A stretch of 61,256 nt of DNA from positions 1-61,256 of the IMG/VR virus record IMGVR_UViG_3300045988_077016; one strand, written 5' to 3'. Under the pieces are notes generated by a model. It ran no database searches. It saw only the letters and a program-made list of their open reading frames with translations, and was not told where the DNA came from. The DNA comes from a virus. Shown piece by piece: positions 3,346 through 59,012 of this stretch (positions within the stretch are counted from its first letter, which is position 1; every line of letters starts with the position of its first letter). Position numbers and translations under genes: made by a program.

Positions 3346-3545
3346 TTATTCTCCTTCTTTCGTTTCCCAACTCGATAACAGGTGTAGCTGCAAAAATAAC
3401 TATTAGCAGTAGCATTGCGATATTTAAGTTTATACACATAATCGGAAGTTATATAAAATACTTTACCACAAATTGGGCAAGTCTTTCTTCTACTCTTTAA
3501 ATAACTATCCCACGTACAATTATAATAATCTGACAAGACAGTCAC
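3324..3545 (-). CDS. Small zinc-ribbon protein (73 aa)
   Basis: CPICGKVF...CSYTCY cysteine pairs. TAA stop. Confidence 0.65.
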   Translation of the reverse strand: MTVLSDYYNCTWDSYLKSRRKTCPICGKVFYITSDYVYKLKYRNATANSYFCSYTCYRVGKRKKENKCKKIAD

Positions 3546-3556
3546 CTCGATTTACA

Positions 3557-3826
3557 TTAGATATGTTCGAAATAATCACAATCAGCACTACGGGATTTGC
3601 TGCATACACATTTATCTATACCGCAAATAGACTTTGAAAACTCATTACCATTTTTATCAATGCCAATGTGGTCTTTGATGATATGCTTACAAACAACACA
3701 ATTTTTTGCATTGGGGTTTTTTAGACAAGCTCTTTCGTGTCTATCCGCAATTTTATAGCTTTTAAATATTTTACCGCAATACCCACAAAGATAACCATAT
3801 GTTCTTTTGGACATTAACATCACCAC
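3557..3826 (-). CDS. Small C2HC/C2H2-like zinc-finger protein (89 aa)
   Basis: CGYCGKIFKSYKIADRHERAC (CxxC-x12-H-x3-C) plus further Cys pairs. Confidence 0.65.
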   Translation of the reverse strand: MVMLMSKRTYGYLCGYCGKIFKSYKIADRHERACLKNPNAKNCVVCKHIIKDHIGIDKNGNEFSKSICGIDKCVCSKSRSADCDYFEHI

Positions 3827-4026
3827 TCTTCTATATTTATTTCAATAACTTTATACATTGACGTATCAACGGTTACTGTCTCCGTTGTTAAAGACTTTAT
3901 TGTACATACGTTACTATCTACATCACGTACAACCGAATAAACATCAGGCACTAATTTAAGAACTTCATCGTCTTTAGTTAATATTGCAACATCTTCAATT
4001 TCGAGATTTATCATGTGTTCGCCCAC
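3820..4026 (-). CDS. Hypothetical protein (68 aa)
   Basis: ORF with a GTG start in a tightly packed operon. Confidence 0.5.
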   Translation of the reverse strand: MGEHMINLEIEDVAILTKDDEVLKLVPDVYSVVRDVDSNVCTIKSLTTETVTVDTSMYKVIEINIEEW

Positions 4027-4029
4027 CCC

Positions 4030-4971
4030 CTATAAAATATTTACAAGCAAATAATCAATCGCAATTTCCGGCATTACAGTGCCGTTCTTGATGCCCTGTT
4101 CGATATTCGTAATCAACTTTAGCATAAATATTATATCAGCATTAGTGTATACATTAGACTTCTCTTTCGCCAATTTATACTGAAACGGCGTCAAACCTAA
4201 ATCTACGGCTTTTATATTCTTAGGAGCGGTCTGCACTGACAGGATATTTTTAAAGCCGTTATACAATGTGCCAAGTGTTAATAATTCGGGCTCACCAATC
4301 TGTTTTGCCTGTACAGAATACTTTTTAACTGCATCTATATCATGGAGCAGTATCGCATCTGTAAACTTAAATGTTATGTCACCTATAGGTGCTGTAATTA
4401 TACCCGCAGTAACTAATTTATTAAATGCTTCATCGAATGATATACTTCGATACTCCGCAAAATGCCGTATTTTATCCTCCTCTAAACGTATACGATTATA
4501 ATTACTCTCACACATTGATATAAGCTTTTTTACGCAATTTTCCGAAAAGTTTGGTAAATCAGCTAAAATGTAACTTTTTAAAATATTGTCCGATAACACA
4601 TCAAACTCACAAATTGTATCTTTATACTGCTTGTAAAACTTACTACGCTTATCTAAACTGTTATAAACTATAACCAATATTGCATCGTGCTGAATTACGG
4701 TGTTATTTACGGTCTCCCACGATTTATCATCTTTGAGGTATGATTTATCGTCAGACACTACAAAACACATCCTACCGTTATTCAAACGTGGTTTTTTAAT
4801 TGTTCTCACAGCTTCGGAAACGGTGTCAAACCTAATCGTATCGATGCATCCAAATGTTTTTGCAATTTGTTTAATATAAGTATCTCTTACATATATCTCA
4901 CTGCCTGTAAAAATATACAAATGCAAGTTTTTTTTGTTTATAATACTCTTATGCAATTCCCTTAATTCCAT
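4030..4971 (-). CDS. holA: Clamp-loader delta-like subunit (HolA-like)
   Basis: Size, position after the two AAA+ clamp-loader genes, and delta-like N-terminus (LYIFTGSEIYV...). ATG at 4971 has a GGTGAGGTG RBS; the ORF-track start at 4995 is an upstream alternative. One of only four genes ending in TAG. Confidence 0.55.
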   Translation of the reverse strand: MELRELHKSIINKKNLHLYIFTGSEIYVRDTYIKQIAKTFGCIDTIRFDTVSEAVRTIKKPRLNNGRMCFVVSDDKSYLKDDKSWETVNNTVIQHDAILVIVYNSLDKRSKFYKQYKDTICEFDVLSDNILKSYILADLPNFSENCVKKLISMCESNYNRIRLEEDKIRHFAEYRSISFDEAFNKLVTAGIITAPIGDITFKFTDAILLHDIDAVKKYSVQAKQIGEPELLTLGTLYNGFKNILSVQTAPKNIKAVDLGLTPFQYKLAKEKSNVYTNADIIFMLKLITNIEQGIKNGTVMPEIAIDYLLVNIL

Positions 4972-4975
4972 AAGC

Positions 4976-5797
4976 TCACACCTCACCAATATCAATCAGA
5001 GATAAAAAATAAGACAGTACAGCAGATTTTTTATTCAGGTTACGGGTTACCAAATTATGCTGCAATTCAGCCAGTTTGGTTATCGCCTGTGTTAATCCAT
5101 ATAATTCTTCCTCAGTACCATTGTCTATCTTATTAAATGCTTTAAGTAGTATAATGTGCTTAAGTCCAATTAAAACATTGTCAAGCGGATAAACGCCGTT
5201 ATCATCATCTGTATACTTTATATCATTTAATAACGGTATACCTGAATACAACTTATGTGGATTACAGAACAGTGTAAAAAGTGTATTGCAATAATCCGCC
5301 ATTTTCTGTTTATCTACACTCCTTACACGTTCAATATCCCCAGGACATTCACAAAACGCTAAATATTCATCGAACTTTGGTTCGTATTCGCATAACTCAT
5401 TAACAGAGTATTCTTCCATGTGCAATTCAACACATCGACTTCTGAGCGTTTCCAATAACATTGACATAGATGGTGCGGTTAAAATAAAATGTGCATTATT
5501 AGGTGGTTCTTCTGTAATTTTTAATAACGCATTTTTAGCATTTAAGGACATCTTATGTGCATTTGCAAAAATATACGCTGTAGGAATAGTTATTGTGTAC
5601 GCCTGTTTTATAACTTCTCGCACCGAATCAACATCACAGCTGCAATCAATTTTTGTAACACCCATAGCCGAACAAATTTCATTTGCTAAAGTGCGTTTGC
5701 CCCAGCCGTCACGCTGGGTAATTACGATAAATCTTGGGAAACTCTTTACTTTAGACCATTTCTTTATCTGAGATTTTATATTCTCCTGACCAATCAC
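4976..5797 (-). CDS. holB: Clamp-loader delta-prime-like AAA+ subunit (HolB-like)
   Basis: Degenerate P-loop GWGKRTLA, LLKITEEPP and SRC motifs. GTG start overlaps the upstream stop (GTGA). Confidence 0.65.
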   Translation of the reverse strand: MIGQENIKSQIKKWSKVKSFPRFIVITQRDGWGKRTLANEICSAMGVTKIDCSCDVDSVREVIKQAYTITIPTAYIFANAHKMSLNAKNALLKITEEPPNNAHFILTAPSMSMLLETLRSRCVELHMEEYSVNELCEYEPKFDEYLAFCECPGDIERVRSVDKQKMADYCNTLFTLFCNPHKLYSGIPLLNDIKYTDDDNGVYPLDNVLIGLKHIILLKAFNKIDNGTEEELYGLTQAITKLAELQHNLVTRNLNKKSAVLSYFLSLIDIGEV

Positions 5798-6849
5798 TTA
5801 TTATTCCCCCTACAAAATAACATAAAATGACATTCAATTAATTCTTTTACAGCTGTTTCCCATCGTAATTTATTATTTAGCTCAACTACCATATCCAACA
5901 CATCTGCAACATCATTATAATTCAACTGCTCACAATACACTTTAATTTGATTTGTCGGCGGCAATGATGTAAAATCCAAAGAACTAAACAACTTAAATTT
6001 TAAAACATCTAAAATAAAAAACTGGAATTGTTTAAGATACAAACTTAAGTTAATGCCATTAGAATTGAGTTCCTCAACAAATTTTACACTTATAGCATCT
6101 CGATATACTAAAGCATCTAACAGCTGAATTTTATATTTAATATCAGTGTCTCCTAAAACATTAGCAACATCATCAACCGTAATACGATTAGTTAGAGATA
6201 ATATTTTATCGAGCATTGTAATACCATTACGCATACCGCCGTCAGCACATTTAGCAATATATGCCAATGCTTCATCATCGGCAGTGATTTTATCTTTTCT
6301 GCTTCGTGTCTGATTTTCCAAGTCGCATATCTGCTTTAATCTTGCCTGTATGCCCCCAACAGATATACGATTAAAGTTATATCTTTGCACACGGCTTAAT
6401 ATCGTTGCTGGTATCTTTTGCGGGTCTGTTGTACACAGTATAAATATAGCTGTTTTAGGAGGTTCTTCGAGTAGCTTAAGCAATGCTTGCCAAGCGTTAT
6501 TAGAAAATGAGTGAACCTCATCACAAATAAATACTTTATATTCACTGTCAATTGGTTTCTTTTTACTATCTTCTATAATCTGTCTAACATCTTCGACACC
6601 GTTATGTGATGCAGCATCAAGCTCTATTGGTTTGCCCTTTCCTTTATTTATCTCATTTGCAAATATTCTTGCAGTAGTTGTTTTACCGTCCCCAGCCGGG
6701 CCACAAAATAAATAGGCCTGTTTAAAAGTACCGGTATTAAGCTGATTAAGCAATATTTGTTTAATATAATTCTGTTCAACCAATTCATCAAATGTTTTAG
6801 GACGATACTTAACCGCCAGTGTTTGATTTGTAAATTTTTCAATCAACAT
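5794..6849 (-). CDS. dnaX: Clamp-loader ATPase, DnaX (gamma/tau)-like
   Basis: KYRPKTF, Walker A GPAGDGKTT, Walker B CDEVH, LLKLLEEPP, sensor SRVQ. ATG 6849 has a GAGGT RBS; the ORF is open to 6870. Confidence 0.85.
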   Translation of the reverse strand: MLIEKFTNQTLAVKYRPKTFDELVEQNYIKQILLNQLNTGTFKQAYLFCGPAGDGKTTTARIFANEINKGKGKPIELDAASHNGVEDVRQIIEDSKKKPIDSEYKVFICDEVHSFSNNAWQALLKLLEEPPKTAIFILCTTDPQKIPATILSRVQRYNFNRISVGGIQARLKQICDLENQTRSRKDKITADDEALAYIAKCADGGMRNGITMLDKILSLTNRITVDDVANVLGDTDIKYKIQLLDALVYRDAISVKFVEELNSNGINLSLYLKQFQFFILDVLKFKLFSSLDFTSLPPTNQIKVYCEQLNYNDVADVLDMVVELNNKLRWETAVKELIECHFMLFCRGNNK

Positions 6850-31056: not shown

Positions 31057-31085
31057 AATATAACACGAGTGTAACATATTGTCAA
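31057..31085 (-). promoter_or_regulatory. Sigma-70-type promoter heading the minus-strand replication operon
   Basis: Minus strand: TTGACA, 17 nt, TGtTATATT. Closely related in sequence to the plus-strand early cassette promoter. Confidence 0.65.
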
Positions 31086-31282: not shown

Positions 31283-31753
31283 TCAATATGATTTAACAAC
31301 TTTTTGATAATATCTCCAAGCTTTACCTTCTGCCACATCTATATCTTCTAACCATGCTTTAGCTAATTGTATATATGTGTTTGAATCATTGCCAAACACA
31401 CCATAATTATCACTGTAAAGCATATTTAACACAAAATAGAAGTCATACTCATTAAAGCGTTTAAAAACAATGCCCGCTTGTTTAGCTGCATTTGTTGTTT
31501 GTTCTAAATCCCAATGTTCACCGACTGAGCCGTCCATGTTTTGCATACCAGCAACGGCGGCATGAGCGGTTTCTTTATCGAAATGCTCACCATAAACACT
31601 TACGTATAAATCGTTGGAAACCATTTTCTCTATTTTAGGATTTTCTATTTTTAAATCCGTTAATAGTTCATTAAAAATGTTAACCCACTCATTGAATATG
31701 TTTAGTGCATCATCCTTATTACGTACTTCTTCATAAAGCTGTTTAATGGTCAT
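31283..31753 (-). CDS. Hypothetical protein (cargo operon)
   Basis: ATG 31753 overlaps the upstream TAA (TAATG) behind GGGAGGTG. No recognised motif. Confidence 0.6.
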   Translation of the reverse strand: MTIKQLYEEVRNKDDALNIFNEWVNIFNELLTDLKIENPKIEKMVSNDLYVSVYGEHFDKETAHAAVAGMQNMDGSVGEHWDLEQTTNAAKQAGIVFKRFNEYDFYFVLNMLYSDNYGVFGNDSNTYIQLAKAWLEDIDVAEGKAWRYYQKVVKSY

Positions 31754-32121
31754 TAACACACCTCCCAAGCACCCCAAATTATACTATCGCCACAATCCCA
31801 TGTGTCATATATAGTACCGTCTATAATGCAGGTAATATGACCTCTCATAGTCAGCAAATATGTGCCAAATGAGTGCGTTGTTATAAATTGTTTTATACTC
31901 AATCTACGCCCATCACACCTATAACAAACACTGGGGTAAAGTCTGTTTAGATATTTTTCCACAAACCCCACATCGTCAAGTATTGTACATTGTTGTTGGG
32001 CTAATATACTTAAATCAGTATAGACTTCGTCCCAATCTTTGTGTTGGGCAGTACTTATAGCTCTTATAACACAATCATTTACTTGACGATTTTGTGGGTT
32101 GCAGTTATAGTACTTATACAT
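31753..32121 (-). CDS. Cys-His(-Asp) papain-like peptidase/transferase-fold candidate (cargo operon)
   Basis: NRQVNDCVIRAIS (candidate nucleophile Cys) and RGHITCIIDGTIYDTWD (candidate His/Asp). Assigned by eye only. Confidence 0.35.
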   Translation of the reverse strand: MYKYYNCNPQNRQVNDCVIRAISTAQHKDWDEVYTDLSILAQQQCTILDDVGFVEKYLNRLYPSVCYRCDGRRLSIKQFITTHSFGTYLLTMRGHITCIIDGTIYDTWDCGDSIIWGAWEVC

Positions 32122-32612
32122 CAGAGTTCTTTAATTTTGCGGGCGTATTTTTTAATTATATCAACACCTTCTTGACCGTCTACACTTTCCTGAAGCTCCT
32201 CGATAAAACAAACTACACTGTCCATCATATATTCAAGAGCCTCTAAGCTCTTATCTTTGGCACCATAGTTACCGCCCCTACGGTATTCATCGTAGCTGTC
32301 CATGTAGTCATCGTAGCCATCCATCATACGTGTAAAATACATTTTAGGGGCATGGCGATTATATCTACCGCTCATGTCTCTATCATCGTCACGCATCATA
32401 TATCTACCACGACTATCTCTACGTCTTGCACCAAAATCCTCATCGTAATCTCGTCTATATCTCATGGTTACTGCCTCCTTTTGACATTCTTCGTCAACTA
32501 AATTTTTATGAACCGCAACAAGTGTTTGTAGTGTACTAAGATTATCAGTGTCAATACCACTATTTTCAATATTCTTAATACTTTGTTCGATTAATTCTTT
32601 TATTTTATCCAT
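32121..32612 (-). CDS. D/R/Y/M-rich protein (cargo operon)
   Basis: TAAGGAG RBS before ATG 32612. The central ~70 aa are dominated by R, D, Y and M (RYRRDYDEDFGARRRDSRGRYMMRDDDRDMSGRYNR...). Confidence 0.6.
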   Translation of the reverse strand: MDKIKELIEQSIKNIENSGIDTDNLSTLQTLVAVHKNLVDEECQKEAVTMRYRRDYDEDFGARRRDSRGRYMMRDDDRDMSGRYNRHAPKMYFTRMMDGYDDYMDSYDEYRRGGNYGAKDKSLEALEYMMDSVVCFIEELQESVDGQEGVDIIKKYARKIKEL

Positions 32613-32624
32613 AATCAACACTCC

Positions 32625-33014
32625 TTACACTGTTGCGGTAGTAAGTAATGTTGCAGGTGTTACTGATGTACACGGTAAACAGTTTTTACCAATGTACTTA
32701 AATACACCTGTTCCTACTGCTGTCGATACTCTTGTGGGGTAAATCCTACGTGTTCTGAGTTGTGAAGCATAGATTGGTGTACAATCTTTATTTAAAAAGT
32801 CGAATACAGTTGTACCACCGTTTATAGTAAACACAACTGGTGTTGCTATTGTTACCGTAGTGGGTATTGTTTGAGCAATCACAATACAGTATCTACCATT
32901 GTTTAGATAGTTGCCTTCGGGTAAGTCTATTGTTAATTGGTTATTTGCAAATGTAACACTTCTTGATATTACAAGGTTGTTACACAGTTTACAGTTGTTA
33001 ATGCAATTAGACAT
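32625..33014 (-). CDS. Cys-capped beta-rich small protein (cargo operon)
   Basis: N-terminus MSNCINNCKLCNN, a T/V/I-rich body, and C-terminal CLPC. AAAGGAGG RBS. Confidence 0.65.
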   Translation of the reverse strand: MSNCINNCKLCNNLVISRSVTFANNQLTIDLPEGNYLNNGRYCIVIAQTIPTTVTIATPVVFTINGGTTVFDFLNKDCTPIYASQLRTRRIYPTRVSTAVGTGVFKYIGKNCLPCTSVTPATLLTTATV

Positions 33015-33107
33015 TATATAACCTCCTTTGCTTAAAATAATAGGAGATAGTGTGGTTTACTATCTCCTATAAATCACACTAAAATAATAGTGGAAATATT
33101 TAATTAA

Positions 33108-33926
33108 TTATGCACAGCAGCCGCCGTTGTTGTAACCACAGCCGGTTGTATTATATCCATAGGGATATGAATAGCTCTGATAGGGTGAGCAGGTAAGATA
33201 TGCCGGAATTGGTACGGGTTTAAGCTGATTAACCAGTGTCTGTGTCTGTGCATTATTCTGTAATGCAAGTTGAGCAGACTGTAACTCAGTTCTAAGGGCT
33301 GTAATCTCATTCTGTGTAAGCGTGTCAATAATTCTTTGTGTGTTAGCATTATTGGCATTAATAATGTCACAAGTATTCTTTGCCATATTATAGTTTACAC
33401 CGTCAATACTTCTCTGTGTTTCACAGCAGCAGTTTTGGAGATTAAAACCAAGTGTGTTAATGGCCTGATTTACGCCATTGAAACCGTTGCAAAGGTTAGA
33501 ATTGATTGCATTTGAGTTGGAATTTATAGCGTCCCTTGTCTGATAACCTGTTTCAGCAATACTTGACTGTGTTTTGCAGCAACATTCAAGGAGCTGATAA
33601 CCAAGGTTAGCAATGCTACTGTTCATTGAATAAAAACCATCACAAATACCGTTTTGAATACCTCTTGCAGCGTTATCAAGCTGACTGAAATTCATGGCAT
33701 CTGAAAGGCTCTGTTGTGTCGCAGGTGTGCAACAAGGTGACCAATTAGCAGCACTGTTACCATCATTGCCATTTCCATTAAAACCGTTTCTGCCCCAACC
33801 GAGGAATGCGAAGATGAGGAATACTATAATCCACCAACTGCCACCATCTCCCCAAGAGTTATTACGATTGTTGTCATTAGTCAAAAGGGCAACATCCGAA
33901 GCACTTAAACCGTCTGAATAAGCCAT
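33108..33926 (-). CDS. Single-pass membrane protein with duplicated CCC-containing repeats and a Y/G/C-rich tail (cargo operon)
   Basis: TM segment WWIIVFLIFAFLGW. Two ~45-aa repeats (CDGF..N..IANLGYQLLECCCKTQSSI and CNGF..NQAINTLGFNLQNCCCETQRSI). Coiled-coil-like ITALRTELQSAQLALQNNAQ. Tail reads CSPYQSYSYPYGYNTTGCGYNNGGCCA. Confidence 0.7.
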   Translation of the reverse strand: MAYSDGLSASDVALLTNDNNRNNSWGDGGSWWIIVFLIFAFLGWGRNGFNGNGNDGNSAANWSPCCTPATQQSLSDAMNFSQLDNAARGIQNGICDGFYSMNSSIANLGYQLLECCCKTQSSIAETGYQTRDAINSNSNAINSNLCNGFNGVNQAINTLGFNLQNCCCETQRSIDGVNYNMAKNTCDIINANNANTQRIIDTLTQNEITALRTELQSAQLALQNNAQTQTLVNQLKPVPIPAYLTCSPYQSYSYPYGYNTTGCGYNNGGCCA

Positions 33927-33977
33927 AATAAAACCTCCTTAAAAAAATAAATTATTGTATATAAGTTTTTGCAAAAA

Positions 33978-34223
33978 CTATCTTTTATTAATATTCTGCA
34001 TAAAAGCGGGAAATTCTTTGTCGAAATCTATACCACGTTCTTTTAAAATATTTCGGGCAAACTGCTCTACTTGCTGACTTTGACCATTGTTTGCCATGTT
34101 TATAAGATTAGTAATCATGGGATTTTTATTCATGCCCATCATTGATAAGGCATTCATAAGCAACTGTTGAGGATTGCCTCCACCGCTCATAAACATCTGC
34201 AATATCTGCATAGGGTTATTCAT
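33978..34223 (-). CDS. Met/Asn/Gln-rich small protein (cargo operon)
   Basis: 81-aa ORF, ATGA-coupled to the upstream gene. Ends in TAG. Confidence 0.6.
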   Translation of the reverse strand: MNNPMQILQMFMSGGGNPQQLLMNALSMMGMNKNPMITNLINMANNGQSQQVEQFARNILKERGIDFDKEFPAFMQNINKR

Positions 34224-34729
34224 TAATTATCACCCTTCCTTTTATAATCTTTTAAATCATCTGTTAAGTCACGTAACTGACGTTTGATGCTTTTGATTTC
34301 TTCTTTAACATCTTTCATATCCTTGGGTTCTTGTTTTAACATTTCCTGTACATCGTCTACTGTTACATATTTAGGCTGTTCCTGTTTTATATCATCAGGC
34401 GTTACAGGTTTATAAATAACTGTTTTACTGGTGCCATCCATTTGAAGTTGTTTAGTTACAATAGCACTACCATCAGTAATGGGAAAATAGCTAATACTAC
34501 CATCAAGAGGTATGTCTGTTGCTTTTACAACTTCAATACTATCAACTGATTTACCCTGTAATCCCACAGTCTGTACAGGTGTTTGTGGCATAAACTGTTG
34601 AGTATTTGGCTGTGTGTACTGTGGCTGAGGTTGGGAAAACTGTGGATATTGTTGCTCTAACATACCCAATCTCTGCTGTTGTTGCATCATCATTTGTGGG
34701 TTATACTGATACATGTTATTACCAAACAT
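34223..34729 (-). CDS. Protein with a Q-rich (prion-like) N-terminus (cargo operon)
   Basis: 17 Gln in the first 55 residues (QMMMQQQQRLGMLEQQYPQFSQPQPQYTQPNTQQ), then a beta-rich core and a charged coiled-coil tail. Confidence 0.65.
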   Translation of the reverse strand: MFGNNMYQYNPQMMMQQQQRLGMLEQQYPQFSQPQPQYTQPNTQQFMPQTPVQTVGLQGKSVDSIEVVKATDIPLDGSISYFPITDGSAIVTKQLQMDGTSKTVIYKPVTPDDIKQEQPKYVTVDDVQEMLKQEPKDMKDVKEEIKSIKRQLRDLTDDLKDYKRKGDN

Positions 34730-34730
34730 A

Positions 34731-34850
34731 TTAATACCTCCTGTACTTTTTAATCTTAGCGGCTAAAAGGCTGGCAGCTTGTTCAGCATCAGTCTTAGAC
34801 CAACCACCTACATTAATTAAGTAATCAACTAACATCTTATCTGTCAACAT
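34731..34850 (-). CDS. Possible 39-aa protein, below the ORF-track cutoff
   Basis: ATG behind a TGGAGG RBS. Translation is MLTDKMLVDYLINVGGWSKTDAEQAASLLAAKIKKYRRY. The stop lies 1 nt before the next ATG. Confidence 0.4.
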   Translation of the reverse strand: MLTDKMLVDYLINVGGWSKTDAEQAASLLAAKIKKYRRY

Positions 34851-34895
34851 TCTACCAGCCTCCAATTATTATTTATCTTATGTATTTATTATCGC

Positions 34896-34958: not shown

Positions 34959-35282
34959 TTAATTCGTTTTTAATATGTCTAAATATTGCTGTAATTCGGG
35001 CGATAATAAAACGCCTTGTGTATCTAACAAATACTTAAGCTGTTTTCGAGCTTTAGTGATTAAATTGTCAATGGATTCTTTTGTTAAATTCATTTCTTCC
35101 GCAATTTCAACATGAGATTTTTCTTCGACATAAAACAACCACAATACCTTTTCGTACCTATATTTTAGACCAATAGAAGAAATGATTAGTTTTAAATACA
35201 CTTTAGACATACGTTTTAATAGATTATTAAATTCGCTTTGTGTTGTATCAGCCACATCGTAATCCTCCTTAAAATTGTACAA
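34959..35282 (-). CDS. Sigma-70 region-4-like HTH protein (107 aa)
   Basis: KVLWLFYVEEKSHVEIAEEMNLTKESIDNLITKARKQL matches the region 4.2 pattern. No region 2 is present. Confidence 0.6.
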   Translation of the reverse strand: MYNFKEDYDVADTTQSEFNNLLKRMSKVYLKLIISSIGLKYRYEKVLWLFYVEEKSHVEIAEEMNLTKESIDNLITKARKQLKYLLDTQGVLLSPELQQYLDILKTN

Positions 35283-35314: not shown

Positions 35315-35665
35315 CTATTCTGCTTTGTTATAGGCATTACTTTGGGATAATGTACTATCTGAAATGTCGTTTAGTATTATACCATTATCTCCAGCGACCA
35401 TTTCTTCTGCTGTTTGTTCAGAACATAAAGAACCATTACTTAAAAAGTCACATAAATTTTGCTGTGCTTTACTGTATGTTATTACCAATGCGGTGCTAAA
35501 TATTGCTACAACCAAAACTACACAGATAAACGCTATTTTAATAATACTCACAAGTTTTTCATTTACATCTTTATAAACAGCCGCATCTTTAACTTTTCTG
35601 TCGAGTTTTTCCTGTAGCATTTCCATTTTGTTTAGTTCTTGTTCGATTGTATCAAAATTTTGCAT
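35315..35665 (-). CDS. Coiled-coil plus TM protein (XhlA-like lysis accessory candidate)
   Basis: N-terminal coiled coil, TM IIKIAFICVVLVVAIFSTALVI. Adjacent to the endolysin. Ends in TAG. Confidence 0.45.
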   Translation of the reverse strand: MQNFDTIEQELNKMEMLQEKLDRKVKDAAVYKDVNEKLVSIIKIAFICVVLVVAIFSTALVITYSKAQQNLCDFLSNGSLCSEQTAEEMVAGDNGIILNDISDSTLSQSNAYNKAE

Positions 35666-36399
35666 TAGTTATCCCCCTTAACAGAAGATGATGGTTTAAA
35701 ATTTTTTACATCAGTATCTTTTTTAATCTGTAAAACTCTAACAATCATTGCAATTACCTGTTCTCTTGTGGCAAACATTTGAGGCTGTGTGCCATCAGAT
35801 ATACCAAGTTCTTTAGCTTCTGCTATATCAGCTTTAGCCCAATCGCTACAAGGTTTTTCAGCACGTTCGGCTAAATTATTGTTCAAAAGTTTATCAAAAT
35901 CTGTCTGTGACATTGTTTCACCTTCTCTTAGTCTGTTTTCGACTTCGGTCAAAAACCAAGTTAAGTCTAAACCATCTTTTATGTAATTTTTATCTATTAA
36001 TATTCTGGGACAGTTCTTACCGTTCCATTGAAAATGTGTTTTGATATTTTTGATACCAAGCTTTTTCATTTTTAAAACCGTTAGTTGTACAGCATTTTCA
36101 AGTGTTTTTCTACGGTCACCACTTTCGCAAATTTCAATGGATAATGATGTAGTGTTACCATAGGTATTACCACAATGATAAGCTACTTCATTATCTGGTA
36201 TAGCCTGTATAATCTCTTTTTCATCGACACAATAATGCCAAGATGCAATACGTGTATTCGAGGGGTTATCAAACCAATCACGCTCATTACGTGCAGTGCT
36301 TTTAGTATTAGCTGTTGAGTGTATTGTTATTGATGTTTTATTTGTTTGTATACCCGGACGTAATTTGGGGTTATTTAAAAATTTTTGAACTATTATCAC
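35665..36399 (-). CDS. Endolysin: N-acetylmuramoyl-L-alanine amidase (Amidase_2/PGRP fold) with an SLH-like C-terminal module
   Basis: ITIHSTAN...SWHYCVD...AYHCG...SIEICE...H..W.GKNCP. The C-terminus DWAKADIAEAKELGISDGTQPQMFATREQVIAMIVRVL resembles one S-layer-homology repeat. Confidence 0.8.
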   Translation of the reverse strand: MIIVQKFLNNPKLRPGIQTNKTSITIHSTANTKSTARNERDWFDNPSNTRIASWHYCVDEKEIIQAIPDNEVAYHCGNTYGNTTSLSIEICESGDRRKTLENAVQLTVLKMKKLGIKNIKTHFQWNGKNCPRILIDKNYIKDGLDLTWFLTEVENRLREGETMSQTDFDKLLNNNLAERAEKPCSDWAKADIAEAKELGISDGTQPQMFATREQVIAMIVRVLQIKKDTDVKNFKPSSSVKGDN

Positions 36400-40122: not shown

Positions 40123-40125
40123 AAA

Positions 40126-40764
40126 TTATCGCAACCTTTCTATTTTATACCAATCTAACGATATATCTCTATTGGCTTGAGCAGTTAATTTAAATCGAAT
40201 ACGTGTAATATTTACTGCTGTTACATAACAATATAACTGTTGTTTACCCTGTTCATCAAGTTTAGTACTATTTCCAAAAGGCATAGTATATAATTGGTCA
40301 CTACTTAAAACTTCTCCAGACGAATCTTCATTTTTAATTTGTAGCTCAATATGTAGCCCAATAAACGCACTCGTATTTGCAGTATACGGGGATGTACCTT
40401 GAAAGGTTATTTTATATACAGCGTTATCAGTTTGATTAATTATCACATTATTAATATCGTGGGTAACAGTTGAACCTTGAGTATTTTCAGCTATTTCCAC
40501 ACCGTCAGTAAATGTAGTTGGTACAACTAACTCAGTTGTATTACCCCTAATATCTTCCTCAATTAAGGGCTTTAGTATCGATATAACTTCATTAGTTTGT
40601 TGGGTTACATTGGCTAATTCAGTTAATACTTTATTTAATTTAGCCATTAGGGTACCAGTCGTTACTGATGCCCCTCCCCCATCATCAGAGGTTACACCAA
40701 TTCTGTTTTTAACAGCATCTAAAGTTGGTTTATCTGCTATTTGTACTCTATCCCCTGTTGCCAT
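40126..40764 (-). CDS. Tail fibre-associated protein (212 aa)
   Basis: ORF with a GAGGAGG RBS, downstream of the baseplate genes. Confidence 0.5.
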   Translation of the reverse strand: MATGDRVQIADKPTLDAVKNRIGVTSDDGGGASVTTGTLMAKLNKVLTELANVTQQTNEVISILKPLIEEDIRGNTTELVVPTTFTDGVEIAENTQGSTVTHDINNVIINQTDNAVYKITFQGTSPYTANTSAFIGLHIELQIKNEDSSGEVLSSDQLYTMPFGNSTKLDEQGKQQLYCYVTAVNITRIRFKLTAQANRDISLDWYKIERLR

Positions 40765-41854: not shown

Positions 41855-43021
41855 TTACGATTGCTGAGTTAATGTTACAGTACCGAGTTTTGGTAACTGT
41901 TGTGATTGAGCTGTTTCAATTAATTCTACATCGTTTGCACTATCATTAAGCGTAACATTAGTTACATTGGCTACACCACTGACCCTTAGTATGTTTGCAA
42001 TTATACGTGCTACATAAACAGTTACATGGTAATTATTTAATTCATCAGCTATACCCCAATTAACTCTTAATTCATCGAAATAATATTGAATAGCTTCTCG
42101 CACAGATGATTGTATTTGACCTAAAGTCACGCTACCTGTTACAGCTATTGTGGCTTTAATATTTATGGTAACTTCTGTCGGTGTTGTTACAGTTACTACA
42201 TGACCTATTGGAGCCATGCCCAAACCAGTACCCTTATCACCGTTTACGTTTTCTGGGTCAATCAGTTTTTCTAACGCCGATATAAATTCGGTTGAAATTG
42301 GATTGTATTCGGCATCAACAACACTTAATTTAACTGTGCCTCCACCATTCCAAACTGGATAAACCTGTACTTCACCAACACCATCAAGCGCCCTAATTTC
42401 TTCATCGTACTGGGCAATATTACCACCAAAGGGTTTTTGACTTAATCTTAAATAATATCGGGTACGTAATTCATCGTCAGTCTCTTGGTTTTGAGCGGGT
42501 TCAAGCAGTGTACTCATTGTAGCTGTTGCAATGCCAGAAATAAATGTAATGTTAATTAACTCACCTGTGTAATCATTACCTGTTATACCAGCTAACTCAC
42601 ATCGTAAAGCATACGCACCTGATACTGTTTTACCCTCTTCATCGATGTATGCTGATTCTACATAATAATTTACGGGTACTGATGCTGATACAGTTGTAAA
42701 TCGTGTGCCAACCGGTACTGAAATAGGTGAACCAGATTCATCTGCAAAATCAGCTCTTTTTAAAGCATACGTAGCTTGATACCTTGACATACCCTGTTCT
42801 TTGACACGTAAATCAAGATATTCACCTGTGGCACTATCTGCGTATGTATTACGATATACTTCTTTTAACTGCAAATAAAATTCGGCTAATTGATATGCGT
42901 GAGGTGCAACGGCGTCCCACATTATAGCGCCTTGTCGTTTATCGTAATCGTCTGATATTCTTACAAGACTTTTTGATAACAGATATTCGTATGTAAATTC
43001 TTGTAAGTAGTCACCAATCAT
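41855..43021 (-). CDS. Baseplate J-like protein (XkdT-like)
   Basis: 388 aa, placed by synteny within the Xkd-type module. Confidence 0.65.
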   Translation of the reverse strand: MIGDYLQEFTYEYLLSKSLVRISDDYDKRQGAIMWDAVAPHAYQLAEFYLQLKEVYRNTYADSATGEYLDLRVKEQGMSRYQATYALKRADFADESGSPISVPVGTRFTTVSASVPVNYYVESAYIDEEGKTVSGAYALRCELAGITGNDYTGELINITFISGIATATMSTLLEPAQNQETDDELRTRYYLRLSQKPFGGNIAQYDEEIRALDGVGEVQVYPVWNGGGTVKLSVVDAEYNPISTEFISALEKLIDPENVNGDKGTGLGMAPIGHVVTVTTPTEVTINIKATIAVTGSVTLGQIQSSVREAIQYYFDELRVNWGIADELNNYHVTVYVARIIANILRVSGVANVTNVTLNDSANDVELIETAQSQQLPKLGTVTLTQQS

Positions 43022-45547: not shown

Positions 45548-47635
45548 TTATCCCATTACAACAGATGTTGCTACTTCTTCTTCAAGCATCTGTGATAATC
45601 TGTTCATTATCATGTCAACATCGACAGTTTCTTTAATGTCACCAAAGTTGTTTGTCATTGTTGGTGTACTTGTAGACACATTAATTAAAAAATCTCTTGC
45701 CGCAATATCTTTTAATAATGCTATATCTTCATCTGATAACTGTACTTCACCGCTACTGTCAAGTTTACCGCCCTTAATTTTAGATGCAACTGCACCGTCC
45801 TCAACGGGTACACCCCCTCCAGCACCAGCTGTTTGAGTGGCTGCATCATTTGCCGCAGCCATCCAGTCAGACACACCGCCTGCATTATCAAGTGAACTCA
45901 GTATTGTTGAAGTCAAGTCGCCAGCTTTTTCGCCTATTTTATTGGGGTCAAACTGGTCATATTTATCCCAAATATCCCCAATGGTTCCGACTCCTGCTCT
46001 CGCTTTTTCAAAAGCATTGTCTCCGAATGAGTTTAAGCTGTTTGCGGCCGCAGCCAACTTATCACTTATACTACGGGCATTATTTGTGCCAGCATTTTTA
46101 ATGCTGTCTGGCAAAACCTCTGTACCCAAAAAGGGTAAATCGGCATCACCGAATTTATCACCCAAGTCAGCGAAACCGCCAAAAACTTTACTTAACGCAT
46201 TAAGTATGCTGCCAATCATAGTGGCTATTGCACCAAGCACACCAGTTGCGATTGAGTATAAAAACCAAAAAGCACTCACTAATGTTGAACCAACAGCTAC
46301 CGCAAACTGAACAACTTTAGCTATGGCTGTAACAGATTTCTGTATAATATCTGTAAATGTTTCTCCACTTTTTTCATGTAGGTTTTTAAAGTAGTCAATA
46401 GCACTTGATATGGCAATACCGAGCAATAATGCTTTACCATGAGCAATTATAAATCCTGCTGCTATATACGGTAGTATTTCCATAGCCGCTGCGGCTAAAT
46501 CGTCAAAATTTTCTGACAACCATTCGATGCCGTCAGCAGCAGCATTAACGCCAACAGACATAATTCCAAAGAAACCGTCCACAACAGTTGACAAAGTTTC
46601 CCAGAATTTAATAGAATCTTCACTTTGTAGCCAGTCCATTATGTCTGTTATACTCTGATAAAAGCTTTTCATACCCGCACCGTTTGAGGTTAAATTGGAC
46701 ATCATCATACCCCACATGGTGGTAATGGATTCTTTAACTTGCTCAACTGTCCATGGCATAGCTGCAAAATCTTCATTTATCTTGTCAGACATTAATTCGA
46801 AAGCTTTAGTTATTCTTTCAGCAGTTAATTCACCCTGTGAACCCAATTCTTTCAAGTCGCCGAAAGTAACATCTTTATCAAAAATGCCTTGCATATTCAA
46901 GCCTTCTGCTAAATACTCACCCATTCGGGGTGCGTACTGTCTAATAGCTTTAAGCTCTTGTCCTTGTAAAGTGCCTTGACCTAATGCTTGAGATAACTGC
47001 AATAATACTGATTCAGTTTCTTTAGCATTAGCACCACCAAGAATAAGTGATTTATTAACTGCCTCGGCAAATTTAGCACTTTGTTGTATAGCATTTGCAC
47101 CAGAATAAACGCCTGTTGCTAACATACGGTTTACAAGGTCAGATGTTGCATTTAAACTTGAGCGTGATGCTAAAGCAGATTTACCTATAACATTATACAT
47201 TACATCATCACTAAAACCTGATGTATTATATGCTGACAACCTGGCTTTTTGTAACTTTATACTGTCAGACGTATCAGTTAATTTCGATGTTAGGTCTATC
47301 GCTTTATTACCGATTTTGGACATTAGATAGTAGACAGATGCTAAATCCTGTATTGATTGTTTAGTGTCTTCCACAACTGTTTTTACAGCTTTAGCGGCTG
47401 CTTGCATTCCAGCAATAAAGCCTGTTCCAGCAGATATGCCACCATACCCAGCGCCTCCTGCGCCCGCACCTGCACCCATTGCCCCATTTATCGCACTCGC
47501 CATACGTTGAGCCGCTTGTGCAGTTTGGTCGAACTGAGTTTCTAATGTTTTCGCATTTCGGCTAAGTGTTTTTAATGCGGGGCTCATTCTGTCAACAAAT
47601 TCCATAGAAACTCTTAAATTTGTATCACTTGGCAA
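45548..47635 (-). CDS. Tail tape measure protein
   Basis: 695 aa, Ala/Gly-rich with hydrophobic helices. TTG start 5 nt after AGGAGGTGA. Follows the frameshifted chaperone. Confidence 0.85.
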   Translation of the reverse strand: MPSDTNLRVSMEFVDRMSPALKTLSRNAKTLETQFDQTAQAAQRMASAINGAMGAGAGAGGAGYGGISAGTGFIAGMQAAAKAVKTVVEDTKQSIQDLASVYYLMSKIGNKAIDLTSKLTDTSDSIKLQKARLSAYNTSGFSDDVMYNVIGKSALASRSSLNATSDLVNRMLATGVYSGANAIQQSAKFAEAVNKSLILGGANAKETESVLLQLSQALGQGTLQGQELKAIRQYAPRMGEYLAEGLNMQGIFDKDVTFGDLKELGSQGELTAERITKAFELMSDKINEDFAAMPWTVEQVKESITTMWGMMMSNLTSNGAGMKSFYQSITDIMDWLQSEDSIKFWETLSTVVDGFFGIMSVGVNAAADGIEWLSENFDDLAAAAMEILPYIAAGFIIAHGKALLLGIAISSAIDYFKNLHEKSGETFTDIIQKSVTAIAKVVQFAVAVGSTLVSAFWFLYSIATGVLGAIATMIGSILNALSKVFGGFADLGDKFGDADLPFLGTEVLPDSIKNAGTNNARSISDKLAAAANSLNSFGDNAFEKARAGVGTIGDIWDKYDQFDPNKIGEKAGDLTSTILSSLDNAGGVSDWMAAANDAATQTAGAGGGVPVEDGAVASKIKGGKLDSSGEVQLSDEDIALLKDIAARDFLINVSTSTPTMTNNFGDIKETVDVDMIMNRLSQMLEEEVATSVVMG

Positions 47636-52213: not shown

Positions 52214-53293
52214 TTAGTATTTAATGTTAAATACCTTGTTCATGTTTTCGAATGAAGGGAGTACAATTTCTGAAACAGATGTAATAACATTTACAGGAAG
52301 TGATTCTTTCTTAGTGAGAATTGCGATACCTGTATTAATGATTGAAACATTAGCATCTGTGTTACCGCTCATAAGGTCTGCTTCTTCCGGTGTTGTACCG
52401 TACCAAGTCTTACCAAGTGTGCCGGCAGGAAGAAGTGTGATGCAGCCTGATGTGGGGTAGAAGTACTGCTCAACACCCCTAAAGTCTTTATAAAGTTTAT
52501 CAGCAATCTGGAAACTAATGCCTGTTTTCTTTGTCAGATAATCCATAACCATGTTATCTGTTACAATGATACTATTAGCACCGATAGCTGTAATTGTCAT
52601 ATCTTGTTTGATATTCTTATTAAGAGTAATATCAATCCAAGTGTCATAACCAAGAATAGCTCTTGTAAGATTAATACCCCTCTTTTTAGCCTCTCTTACT
52701 GTATCAATAATATCTGTTACAGGGTTACTGTTCTCATGGTCACTCCACTTACTTGTACCAGCAAGTGTTGTGATATTCTTGCTTGCCCATGTACCATTCG
52801 GGTCATAGTTATATGTGTAATTAGCACTCTGACCTGATGTATTCTGTGATTGAAGTGAGAAAGCACCGTCTGTAATAAGTTTAAGTCGCATGATTTCGGG
52901 AATAACTTTAGCGCCGTCTACAAGATTCTTTTCATCGTCAAAAATTCTTCTAATGATTTCTCTTGCGTAGCTATCATTATTGGCCTCCATGAACATAAGG
53001 AGCTGCTGTCTATCTTCCTCACCAATTCTCATAGCTTCTCTAAAGAATGGCATACGTGTCTGTTCAATGCTGATGTTACCTCTATCTCTAAGGGGCGGTT
53101 TAGCATCGAACGCTGATGGGTTAAGAGCAACTGGAAGAGTATCATATCCCTTAATCCATTCAAGTCTTAAGCCCTGTTTCTTATCGTTAGGGAAAAGCAC
53201 CTCACCAATCATGGGCAGCTCATTTGAATAGAGTGTTTCATAGTAGGCTGCAAGTGCTTGTGATGTTACCATATCATAAATTGATTTAGCCAT
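52214..53293 (-). CDS. Major capsid protein
   Basis: 359 aa, preceded by the scaffold and decoration genes. N-terminus (MAKSIYDM..ALAAYYETL...VLFPN) resembles E-type capsid proteins. Confidence 0.8.
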   Translation of the reverse strand: MAKSIYDMVTSQALAAYYETLYSNELPMIGEVLFPNDKKQGLRLEWIKGYDTLPVALNPSAFDAKPPLRDRGNISIEQTRMPFFREAMRIGEEDRQQLLMFMEANNDSYAREIIRRIFDDEKNLVDGAKVIPEIMRLKLITDGAFSLQSQNTSGQSANYTYNYDPNGTWASKNITTLAGTSKWSDHENSNPVTDIIDTVREAKKRGINLTRAILGYDTWIDITLNKNIKQDMTITAIGANSIIVTDNMVMDYLTKKTGISFQIADKLYKDFRGVEQYFYPTSGCITLLPAGTLGKTWYGTTPEEADLMSGNTDANVSIINTGIAILTKKESLPVNVITSVSEIVLPSFENMNKVFNIKY

Positions 53294-57749: not shown

Positions 57750-59012
57750 TTAAAAACTGAAATTATTACCACCGAGATTTTCTGTTGCATAACGTAACGG
57801 GTCAATCAAGTGGTTATAATCGTCAATAGGCTCATTAATAATCTTACCATCAGTATTTTTGTCCCATACATAGTTGTTTAATTCTATAATCATATTCTCA
57901 CATCGAGGGTGTACAATGATTTCATAGTCTTGTAGTTTTAATATACCAGCTCTTACTGAATCGTTACCCTTTTTAGCAGGTCTTATTCTTGTTAAACCCA
58001 AAGCTTTTACCTCTGCAATAGATTTAGGTTCAGCACTATCTGCCTTGATTAACTCTTTATCCCAATGTAGCAGTTTTAAATCACGTACAAGCTGTGCATT
58101 GGTTACACCTGTTTTATAATATTCTCTCGGTATATAAATACGTTTTTCTTTCTCACTGGCCAAACAGAATATAACACCTGTCGGCGCTGTAAAGCCCCAG
58201 TCTAAGCCAAACAGTTTTTGATAAATGGCCATACCATATCTATCTTCCCTGTTCATAACTTCCACTTCGTCAAAGTTTTCGATATGCCAATTTGTAAAGA
58301 TAAGACCCTCTGCAATACCCCAATTACCTAAACCCTCAATACTATAACGTCTTGGTTGAGTTTCTTTCATCTTATTAAAAACACGCCTGTCATCATCACC
58401 GAGAAACTCATTACATAAATAAGTTGTAGTATCAGTGAATATATCTTCATCAGCGGGAGCATCAAAGAATCTTTTCTTTATCCAAATATTCTCACTCCAA
58501 GGGTTAAATGTCAAAGTAATCTGTTTAAAATATCCGGGTGGTAATTCACCTCTTATGGACATATCCAATTTATTAAATTCTGATTCATCTGTTATCTGAA
58601 AGGCCTCCTCCACCCAACACCAGCAGAGATAACCTCTTTCAGTTGTAATTGATGTAATAGATTGTGGGTCATCAAAACCTCTAAACAGTATCTTTTGACC
58701 AGTTGGTATATAAGTCATTTCCAAAGGATTCATAGTAGTTTTCCATAAATGCTTAACACCTAACTGATTTATAGCCCATTTTAATTGGGCGAAAGTAGAA
58801 TCTCGATGGGTATTAAAGAATTTTCTAACTACTAAAGTATTAGATAAAGGCATTTTCATCATATTGAAAATAATCCATAAAGCTGTTGTACAGCTTTTTT
58901 TACTACCACGCCCACCTTTAACTACTCTGTATCTACCTTTAAATCGCCAAAATTTACCGTAACCACCACCTATGACCTGAGATAGATTAATCACGGTTGG
59001 ATTGTTTGCCAT
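57750..59012 (-). CDS. terL: Terminase large subunit (PBSX/XtmB-like)
   Basis: Walker A KGGRGSKKS, Walker B-like CWCWVEEA, and a C-terminal nuclease region with conserved Asp residues; 420 aa. Confidence 0.85.
   Translation of the reverse strand: MANNPTVINLSQVIGGGYGKFWRFKGRYRVVKGGRGSKKSCTTALWIIFNMMKMPLSNTLVVRKFFNTHRDSTFAQLKWAINQLGVKHLWKTTMNPLEMTYIPTGQKILFRGFDDPQSITSITTERGYLCWCWVEEAFQITDESEFNKLDMSIRGELPPGYFKQITLTFNPWSENIWIKKRFFDAPADEDIFTDTTTYLCNEFLGDDDRRVFNKMKETQPRRYSIEGLGNWGIAEGLIFTNWHIENFDEVEVMNREDRYGMAIYQKLFGLDWGFTAPTGVIFCLASEKEKRIYIPREYYKTGVTNAQLVRDLKLLHWDKELIKADSAEPKSIAEVKALGLTRIRPAKKGNDSVRAGILKLQDYEIIVHPRCENMIIELNNYVWDKNTDGKIINEPIDDYNHLIDPLRYATENLGGNNFSF

Follow-up and report, generated by a model that had tools for sequence, protein, structure and literature searches.

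A mobile gene module of gut-anaerobe phages that may encode a membrane-anchored stalk-and-knob assembly

Genes of the block

A block of eight small genes, g1 to g8, was analysed in a viral genome (IMG/VR record IMGVR_UViG_3300045988_077016, positions 1 to 61,256; this whole stretch of 61,256 nucleotides is referred to as the window). The block lies at positions 31,283 to 34,850 on the minus strand. The initial annotation, made from the sequence alone, had described it as a terminator-bracketed cargo operon of compositionally extreme proteins. The results presented here indicate that the block belongs to an accessory and mobile module found in phages of gut anaerobes, the hosts representing at least five lineages of bacteria. 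What the module builds is a more tentative matter; the explanation we prefer is a self-contained assembly of stalk and knob anchored in the host membrane.

All eight open reading frames (ORFs) of the initial annotation were recovered on the minus strand, and the genes called independently in a public record of this phage (locus L175) have matching products of 39, 168, 81, 272, 129, 163, 122 and 156 amino acids (aa) for g1 to g8. The seven larger products, g2 to g8, occur verbatim in public databases as 'hypothetical protein', with the exception of g7, which is called 'endopeptidase' in one TPA (third-party annotation) record. GGAGG-type ribosome-binding sites precede seven of the eight genes, and the start of g7 coincides with the stop of g6. 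From g1 to g8 the intergenic gaps are 1, -1, 51, 93, 12, -1 and -1 nucleotides (nt).

The products had been said to carry no recognisable phage function, and this was borne out. No named function was obtained when all eight were scanned against Pfam, PHROGs, NCBIfam and PADLOC. Pfam matches were limited to DUF7841 in g8 (2e-29) and to sigma-70 region 4 in the gene upstream of the block. In PHROGs, g2, g4, g6, g7 and g8 fall into families of unknown function and g1, g3 and g5 into none, and the NCBIfam and PADLOC scans of the eight products returned nothing. Comparison of all pairs among the seven module families by hhalign, g6 versus g8 included, revealed no homology. On direct reading of the sequences, no N-terminal hydrophobic or signal-like segment is present in g2, g3 or g5 to g8, which speaks against the extracellular location proposed for the assembly.

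Regulator, promoter and terminators

The gene upstream of the block (34959-35282, minus strand), earlier termed sigma-like, is a 107-aa ORF (98 aa in the public call) that encodes a small helix-turn-helix (HTH) protein. Pfam matches to Sigma70_r4_2 (9.1e-10) and r4 (8.3e-07) cover residues 39-83 of 107, and the family profile recognises the protein at E = 9e-19, the window protein being itself among the profile seeds. Its relatives are 66-81 aa long. The Pfam matches include region-4 models only, and region 2 is absent from them. A protein with region 4 and no region 2 cannot by itself be a sigma factor; therefore, its identification as a sigma factor of the sigma-70 family was rejected. In 124 loci g4 is preceded on its own strand, within 3.5 kb, by a member of the HTH family; the median distance of 897 nt places it directly before g2. 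The HTH gene is a conserved member of the unit, which therefore does not begin after it as had been assumed.

In 60 of 92 distinct loci a single-pass transmembrane/coiled-coil ORF is found immediately before the HTH gene. At two loci, L069 (6150-6785) and L094 (3026-4255), the HTH is fused to an N-terminal domain with several transmembrane segments and occupies the usual place upstream of g2. In the window the place before the HTH gene is taken by t (35315-35665, minus strand), which is 116 aa long and combines an N-terminal coiled coil with one transmembrane segment. No sequence homologue of t was found in the collected loci; judged by its position, it may be a membrane partner of the regulator.

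Both outer terminators of the initial annotation were present on the minus strand as terminator-like hairpins, one after the HTH gene (34935-34905, 14-bp stem and T-run) and one closing the block (31134-31103, 13-bp stem). The extended -10 candidate TGcGATAAT was likewise present (TGCGATAAT, 34896-34888, minus strand), directly past the T-run of the first hairpin and with no good -35. A second exact copy of TGCGATAAT occurs at 40125-40133 on the minus strand, inside the tail-gene region. The region as a whole holds seven hairpin and T-run sites, against 2.8 +/- 1.8 in shuffled sequences. A third, equally good and conserved hairpin (33070-33040, minus strand, 12-bp stem and T-run) is located in the 93-nt gap between g4 and g5. 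The view of the block as one tightly coupled operon does not hold.

The same punctuation was observed in relatives. Of 129 distinct relatives, 90 have a hairpin ahead of g2 (16 of 129 in shuffles), and in 44 relatives a -10-like hexamer follows this hairpin within 40 nt (0 in shuffles). After g4, a hairpin and T-run was detected in 84 of 121 distinct sequences; the controls gave 11 of 121 (shuffles) and 17 of 112 (coding stretches of equal size). The stems vary in sequence between lineages; thus, the hairpin feature itself is conserved and not merely the DNA. The hairpin and -10 before g2, together with the hairpin after g4, suggest that g2, g3 and g4 form one insulated unit from promoter to terminator and that g5 onward is a second unit, a function read from signals at consensus level. 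At L009, L024 and L073 the hairpin that separates the HTH gene from g2 has different stems, but the loops have the core ACGA(A/C)CTGT in common. This core could be the operator of the HTH protein, or could simply reflect common ancestry.

Recurrence and order of the module

Loci were collected by tblastn of g4 against GenBank phages and from 80 IMG/VR loci, contigs carrying database homologues and 80 loci of species-representative genomes. Iterative profile searches were carried out over all ORFs of 168 loci (given as L-numbers) and the window. The tblastn search found g4 in 37 of 50,697 GenBank phage records, and all of these are from faecal metagenomes, Clostridium perfringens phages (six) or crAss-like phages.

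Co-occurrence was counted over the 79 distinct g4 homologues flanked by 3 kb or more on each side. A g2 homologue is present in 76 of these cassettes, g5 or its alternative g5p (see below) in 78, and g6 or g8 in 70. For g3 the profile gives 61, with an ORF of about 75 aa at that place in most of the others; the sigma-region-4-like HTH gene is found in 59 and g7 in 37. The order is conserved as (transmembrane protein)-HTH-g2-g3-g4-g5/g5p-g6/g8-(g7), g7 being located upstream in some lineages. All four combinations of g5 or g5p with g6 or g8 occur (31, 21, 9 and 7 cassettes). Genes g2, g3, g4 and g5 are syntenic in Dulem virus 36 and bajarodcaudo virus 2, and a matching series of gene sizes is seen in the distant phages L083, L086 and L171. 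Co-occurrence in relatives, on which the initial annotation had proposed to judge the block, was thus found for its genes, g1 excepted. This 39-aa ORF (34731-34850; 44 aa from a TTG at 34865), which has a ribosome-binding site and is called in L175, is lineage-specific. It has no homologue in the 168 loci, some relatives having unrelated small ORFs at its place, and it is not a member of the conserved set.

The module follows a fixed grammar. An HTH gene, often with a membrane protein, is followed by a terminator and an extended -10 without -35, by g2-g3-g4 and by a further terminator. The second unit then supplies one of two unrelated Cys-bearing beta-sandwiches, one of two R/D/Y-rich helical proteins and often g7.

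Some cassettes hold extra recurrent genes, namely an ORF of about 70 aa with a hydrophobic stretch and coiled coil and a helical ORF of 175-197 aa (L073, 8666-8878 and 9389-9982; L087, 6730-6951 and 7339-7866). The latter was considered as ferritin-like and rejected, as it has no Pfam match; it is also found in phage phiCP26F (gp37), which has no module. At L173 (10453-11501), an anti-defence-like gene of the Acb2/Tad1-hairpin type and an M23 peptidase gene are located 1.5-3 kb downstream of the cassette.

g4, the hallmark protein

g4 (33108-33926, minus strand; phrog_16490 at 7.8e-42) belongs to a family with 4,377 database clusters at 90% identity. Its N-terminus is acidic and conserved (LSxADxxAL) and is followed by a Gly-rich stretch and then by a hydrophobic core flanked by Gly and Trp (WWIIVFLIFAFLGW in the window). 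Of 41 distinct g4 sequences, 39 have such a core of 13-17 hydrophobic residues. The N-side of the core is net acidic and Arg is usually found on its C-side, for which reason an N-out/C-in topology is the better guess. The body starts with helical repeats, one to three in number and each closed by CCC-T-Q, and continues with a heptad-like segment and a PxPAY motif. The Cys-rich composition reported for g4 was confirmed: the 15 Cys of the window protein include CCC triplets at 115-117 and 166-168, and the sequence ends in ...GCGYNNGGCCA. At least one CCC motif is present in all g4 homologues listed except two. The Gly/Tyr/Asn/Cys tail is nearly universal, and most tails contain 2-7 Cys.

Searches of the g4 profile against the Protein Data Bank (PDB) gave nothing significant, the weak matches being to coiled coils (coronavirus spike heptad repeats, keratin, syntaxin) and probably compositional. 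This weak resemblance to coiled coils such as coronavirus spike accounts for the name 'spike protein' that crAss annotators have given to g4. A spanin was considered for g4 and dropped, since the neighbouring products have no signal peptide or lipobox on direct reading and most hosts are monoderm Clostridia.

g2 and g3

g2 (34223-34729, minus strand; phrog_21718) was initially noted for a Gln-rich N-terminus, and its N-terminal 55 aa do contain 17 Gln. This low-complexity part, rich in Gln, Pro, Tyr and Met, is followed by a conserved middle segment of about 50 aa and a charged C-terminal helix. The g2 profile has no match among PDB sequences.

g3 (33978-34223, minus strand) is a helical protein recognised by its family profile and always found between g2 and g4. 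As reported, it is rich in Asn (16%), Met (14%) and Gln (11%), and it carries NPxx repeats; in the alignment the Met positions are not conserved. Its profile gave nothing significant against PDB sequences, a match to the designed protein 'Gogy' being probably compositional. An STI1/XPC-binding-like chaperone was dropped as a candidate because only 2 of 16 members match, with a best E of 0.03. At L039 (7185-7841) the g2 and g3 homologues are one ORF of 218 aa, either a true fusion or a sequencing frameshift. At L173 (6278-6802), and also at L174, an HNH/NUMOD homing-endonuclease gene is inserted on the opposite strand between the g3 and g4 homologues.

g5 and its alternative g5p

g5 (32625-33014, minus strand) carries Cys at 4, 8, 11, 43, 78, 112 and 115 in the window, in agreement with the Cys clusters initially noted. 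Among its 127 database relatives C3, C7, C10 and C42 (alignment numbering) are invariant, the first three forming a CX3CX2C arm. The AlphaFold2 (AF2) model, with a predicted local distance difference test (pLDDT) score of 81, is an eight-stranded beta-sandwich whose low-confidence part is this N-terminal Cys arm. The fold search that had been suggested did not lead to a solved structure: g5 has no Pfam match and no PDB-sequence match, and Foldseek against PDB gave none at E <= 1e-3 for the models of either g5 or g7. In BFVD the g5 model has 21 matches at E <= 1e-3, small proteins of uncultured phages among them. It also matches the C-termini of collagen-like, adhesin-stalk, hyaluronidase, tail-fibre and receptor-binding proteins (E 1e-4 to 1e-2, TMq 0.44-0.57) and a region of a 294-aa crAss-like 'DUF7841 domain-containing protein'.

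In many relatives the g5 slot is occupied by g5p, an alternative family of about 140 aa without homology to g5 by hhalign. Reading of the sequences shows that g5p, too, carries conserved Cys. Its matches to Pfam BclA_C (PF18573) are sub-threshold (22 and 16 bits, 1.6e-4 and 0.01, against a cut-off of 38), and its four best PDB profile matches are all BclA (E 0.019-0.12). Two other identities were tried for g5. An Ena pilin (DUF3992/DUF4183) was rejected because there is no Pfam or PDB-sequence match and no Ena among the Foldseek PDB matches listed. A radical-SAM enzyme, suggested by CX3CX2C, was rejected because that domain needs a TIM-barrel-like fold of about 200 aa or more; the 129-aa g5 gives an all-beta model and no Pfam Radical_SAM match.

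g6, g7 and g8

g6 (32121-32612, minus strand; 163 aa in a 166-aa ORF; phrog_28802 at 9.6e-14) has helical ends and a disordered centre in which 75 aa contain R15, D14, Y10 and M8, confirming the bias reported. It is present in 39 of the 79 cassettes and alternates with g8 (31283-31753, minus strand), the DUF7841 protein; both occur together only in the window lineage. The two combine helical parts with R/D/Y/G-rich disordered stretches and have no sequence relation. In the window g6 has such a stretch and g8 does not, whereas g8 relatives carry long ones. g8 has conserved His, and its profile found nothing significant among PDB sequences.

g7 (31753-32121, minus strand) had been put forward as a papain-like candidate. 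In its favour, C17, R20, H95 and D106 are invariant (53 sequences for C17, H95 and D106), and the AF2 model (pLDDT 92.5) has a helix, 17-26, starting at Cys17 and strands at 95-100, starting at His95, and 103-106. The likeness to a solved peptidase did not hold: Pfam and PDB profile searches were empty, and the best Foldseek match in PDB has E 0.47, papain-like entries appearing only at E 1-3.5 with TM scores of at most 0.26. A Pfam scan of longer g7 relatives yielded no informative domain fusions. The g7 family comprises 6,417 representatives at 50% identity.

Genomic position, hosts and mobility

The position after a lysis cassette, taken initially as the classical cargo site, holds for some lineages only. 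Holin and endolysin genes adjoin the module in the window and in L039-L048, L055, L046, L047, L051-53, cr53_1 and PMQ04. In L001, L083 and L171 it directly follows tail-fibre or receptor-binding genes, and in L009, L073 and bajarodcaudo virus 2 it is found between portal/minor head and scaffold/major head genes. In most lineages it is at the end of, or within, the structural gene block, and in C. perfringens phages it is among anti-repressor, Erf and SSB genes. In the crAss-like phage cr53_1 the order is holin, LysB-like protein, g8 homologue, g4 (with g8 directly upstream) and a g5-like ORF, gp65, assigned by reading its translation. The annotated genes gp65 and gp64 of cr53_1 (L088, 5522-6569) contain in-frame stops of translation table 11, which indicates stop-codon recoding in that phage.

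Contigs with the module bin with many families of Clostridia and with gut Bacilli, Erysipelotrichaceae and Mollicutes- and Anaeroplasmatales-like bacteria. Others bin with Negativicutes (Phascolarctobacterium, Megasphaera), with the Melainabacteria Gastranaerophilales and Vampirovibrio, and with Bacteroidota (Segatella, Muribaculaceae, Paludibacteraceae). Binning of phage contigs may err in single cases; the breadth is nonetheless clear. Since monoderm, diderm and wall-less hosts are all included, this range is compatible with a target that every cell has, for example the membrane.

The C. perfringens phages 17DYC, PMQ04, XP41-N3, CPD1, HMD-PC1 and CPQ4 carry g4, and for PMQ04 the presence of g2, g3 and g5 was confirmed by profile. 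The close relatives phiCP26F, phiCP39-O, phiCP13O, phiCP34O and phiCP9O have no module. The flanks in 17DYC and PMQ04 are 93-98% identical to those in phiCP26F and phiCP39-O; in 17DYC, 3455-6359 (2.9 kb) is replaced by other DNA in phiCP26F, with 94-98% identity on the two sides. These data mark the module as accessory and mobile, with no tie to sporulation.

The window phage

The window reads as one phage genome with nearly every gene on the minus strand. Its gene order runs from the large terminase (57750-59012) through portal, major head protein (52214-53293), tape measure protein (45548-47635), baseplate protein (41855-43021) and two fibre-sized proteins to a 63-aa holin-like ORF and an Amidase_2 endolysin (35665-36399). 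The 116-aa single-transmembrane protein t, the 107-aa sigma-70 region-4-like protein and the eight ORFs follow, and then a replication block encoding SNF2 helicase, DnaB, primase, DNA polymerase, clamp, clamp loader and a UvsX-like recombinase. Among the ORFs scanned none was seen to encode an integrase, and a virulent lifestyle is therefore probable. A weak small-terminase match (2403-2864) is on the same strand as the large terminase, about 55 kb away, and this spacing indicates that the window is probably a whole, circularly permuted genome. In public data the same phage is present on dozens of contigs of 60-64 kb. Directly past the closing hairpin of the block and ahead of the SNF2 helicase gene, a promoter-like site, TTGACA-17-TATATT with an upstream TG, is located at 31057-31085 on the minus strand. 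With 11 of 12 matches to consensus, it is probably the start of the replication operon.

Discussion

The explanation that we favour, while holding it as tentative, is that the block is the window phage's copy of a horizontally mobile accessory module, carried by phages of gut anaerobes, which builds a self-contained membrane-anchored stalk-and-knob assembly. g4 would be inserted in the host cytoplasmic membrane through its N-terminal hydrophobic segment. With the N-out/C-in orientation suggested by the charge balance, its CCC coiled-coil body and Gly/Cys tail would face the cytoplasm, where the partners without signals would also be. g4 would serve as the stalk or scaffold and be produced in excess from the insulated first unit, with g3 as its small helper. 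On the cytoplasmic part of g4, the knob-like g5 would assemble together with disordered partners rich in Tyr/Arg and Gln/Tyr (g6 or g8, and g2). The links would be made by thiol chemistry, as metal or Fe-S (iron-sulfur) clusters while reduced and as disulfides once oxidised. g7 may be a thiol hydrolase whose target, to be matured or remodelled, is one of the components or the cell wall. The membrane partner would gate the HTH protein, which in turn would drive the insulated g2-g4 promoter. The assembly would act at the cell envelope during infection, in lysis or release, or in exclusion, and would not be a part of the spore.

In its support count the hydrophobic core and coiled-coil-like remainder of g4, the Cys conserved in g4, g5 and g5p, the spread over host types and, in many lineages, the nearby lysis genes. 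Several observations weigh against this explanation. The hydrophobic core of g4 has almost no Lys or Arg on either side, and its topology is a guess from charge balance. The type of g4 tail does not co-vary with the type of protein in the g5 slot. The g5 fold, as modelled, appears to be that of virion fibre tips, and the module is found among head genes at L009, L073 and in bajarodcaudo virus 2; both observations would rather suit a virion role. g7 is also widespread in phages that lack the module (Pseudomonas, Bacillus and Prevotella Lak phages) and may be a mere neighbour of it.

The main rival explanation is an accessory virion appendage, an optional decoration of head or tail for life in the gut, in which g4 would be a coiled-coil fibre or whisker, g5 or g5p its distal knob, g2 and g3 chaperones, g6 and g8 adaptors and g7 a maturation protease. 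The initial annotation had also raised a virion decoration or appendage, and this part of it gains partial support from the knob-like matches of g5 in BFVD, to the C-termini of collagen-like, hyaluronidase, tail-fibre and receptor-binding proteins, and from the BclA matches of g5p, sub-threshold in Pfam and the top four in PDB. The placement among head genes (L009, L073, L002) or directly past fibre and receptor-binding genes (L001, L083, L171) and the crAss label 'spike protein' point the same way. We nevertheless regard an appendage as unlikely. The phages concerned differ widely, from the baseplate-bearing window phage to Dulem virus 36 and crAss-like phages, and no common docking site is evident. 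The module is dispensable in the phiCP26F group and is located there among early genes, it has its own regulator and insulating terminators, and the core of g4 is strongly hydrophobic. An early module for host takeover, superinfection exclusion or anti-defence, expressed from its own host-type promoter and using g4 at the membrane to counter host defences or the DNA of incoming phages, would account for the -35-less extended -10, the insulation by a terminator from upstream late genes, the anti-repressor, Erf and SSB neighbours in C. perfringens phages, the Acb2/Tad1-like gene near the cassette of L173 and the accessory status. Known functions of this kind are usually single small genes, whereas six to eight are here kept in order, mostly at the end of or within the structural block; PADLOC gave no matches, though it covers defence and not anti-defence. 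This makes such a module distinctly improbable. About as doubtful, or slightly more so, is a metal or redox device, for instance a membrane sensor of oxygen or redox state that times lysis in anaerobes, its Cys-, Met- and His-rich proteins binding Fe-S or Cu/Zn. The four invariant Cys of g5, with CX3CX2C in the low-confidence arm of the model, the CCC motifs and GCGC..GCGC tail of g4, the Met-rich g3, the conserved His of g8 and the restriction of GenBank matches to faecal, C. perfringens and crAss-like phages would agree with it. Against it, no similarity to known metalloproteins emerged from the Pfam and PDB searches, and the Met positions of g3 are not conserved. It is also compatible with the favoured explanation rather than exclusive of it.

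The reading given by the initial annotation, a cross-linked extracellular material such as spore coat, exosporium or appendage, taken here as one that would modify host spores, is very improbable and is largely refuted by the host range: crAss-like phages carry the module, as do contigs binned to Bacteroidota, Negativicutes, Melainabacteria and Mollicutes-like bacteria, which do not sporulate. The coat-like composition (Cys-rich, Tyr-rich and R/D/Y-rich stretches), the BclA_C-like protein in the g5 slot of many relatives and the small sigma-region-4-like regulator, which may be comparable to GerE, speak for it. A small beta-sandwich with an N-terminal Cys-bearing arm, together with Cys-rich partners, is also a feature of endospore appendage (Ena) pilins and the Cys-rich exosporium proteins ExsY/CotY and CdeC; g5 has no match to Ena or exosporium proteins in Pfam, PDB sequences or Foldseek. 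The products lack secretion signals. A long-term effect on host spores is also unlikely, given that DNA polymerase, clamp, clamp loader and recombinase are all phage-encoded and that no integrase was seen in the scan of ORFs. The region after lysis genes is a known cargo hot spot, and a chance row of unrelated morons with biased composition would explain why g1 is lineage-specific and why g7 is widespread by itself. The near-obligate co-occurrence, conserved order, internal punctuation and gene fusions leave almost no room for it.

The cargo idea in itself fits. Like the morons of lambdoid and other phages, the module comes with a promoter-like element of its own between flanking terminators, occupies boundaries of other modules and is present in or absent from near-identical phages, such as those of C. 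perfringens. Classic morons are one or two prophage-expressed genes, whereas the module has six to nine ordered genes, a dedicated regulator, an internal terminator and interchangeable parts, and it is found also in apparently virulent phages. Similar partial likenesses are seen for its components. For g5 and g5p the nearest known structures are the C-terminal domain of BclA and the C1q/TNF-like knobs at the tips of phage fibres and collagen-like proteins. The g5 model aligns in BFVD with C-terminal knobs of this kind, and BclA is the best PDB and Pfam match of g5p; unlike these knobs, g5 is a stand-alone protein of about 130 aa with no stalk, a CX3CX2C arm and four invariant Cys, and all matches are below curated thresholds or structural only. 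With Rz-type i-spanins g4 shares an N-terminal hydrophobic anchor, a coiled-coil-like body, conserved Cys, a Pro-containing C-terminal motif and, often, adjoining holin and endolysin genes. It differs from them in having CCC motifs and a Gly/Cys tail, no lipoprotein partner and no sequence similarity to spanins, and in the mostly monoderm, even wall-less, hosts. g7 resembles papain-like and NlpC/P60 enzymes in its invariant Cys, His and Asp, with Cys at a helix N-terminus, His at a strand start and Asp 11 residues on, but it is very small (122 aa), has no significant match and carries an additional invariant Arg three residues past the Cys. Finally, as in pairs of sigma and membrane anti-sigma factors and in membrane-tethered HTH regulators, the HTH protein is beside or fused with a membrane protein, directly upstream of a promoter that it possibly controls; here the protein has region 4 only, and its membrane partners show no homology to known anti-sigma domains.

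The composition is unlike that of any described system, and literature searches on DUF7841 (full text), PMQ04-group phages, BclA-like phage proteins and the crAss 'spike protein' found nothing. The module is for these reasons considered to be a new kind of phage module. A bolder and less probable possibility is that it specifies a structure not previously recognised among those built by phages, a membrane-anchored, thiol-linked lattice or condensate of stalks and knobs under a membrane-gated sigma-region-4-like regulator. This structure would be exchanged and used by phages whose hosts are strict gut anaerobes of at least five phyla, for example to organise release or to protect progeny leaving the anoxic cell. 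The confinement to phages of gut anaerobes, together with the conserved cysteines, is the strongest single clue to what the module does.

The g4 and g7 families are large in databases, yet no family of the module has a described function. A system for experiments is at hand in the cultured module-bearing phages PMQ04, 17DYC, CPD1, XP41-N3 and HMD-PC1 and the module-free phiCP26F and phiCP39-O. The module crosses phage morphotypes and bacterial phyla and yet stays within gut anaerobes, with a conserved grammar, its own regulator and swappable parts. This distribution points to a general, unrecognised step of phage biology in anoxic habitats, to which the conserved cysteine chemistry may be central.

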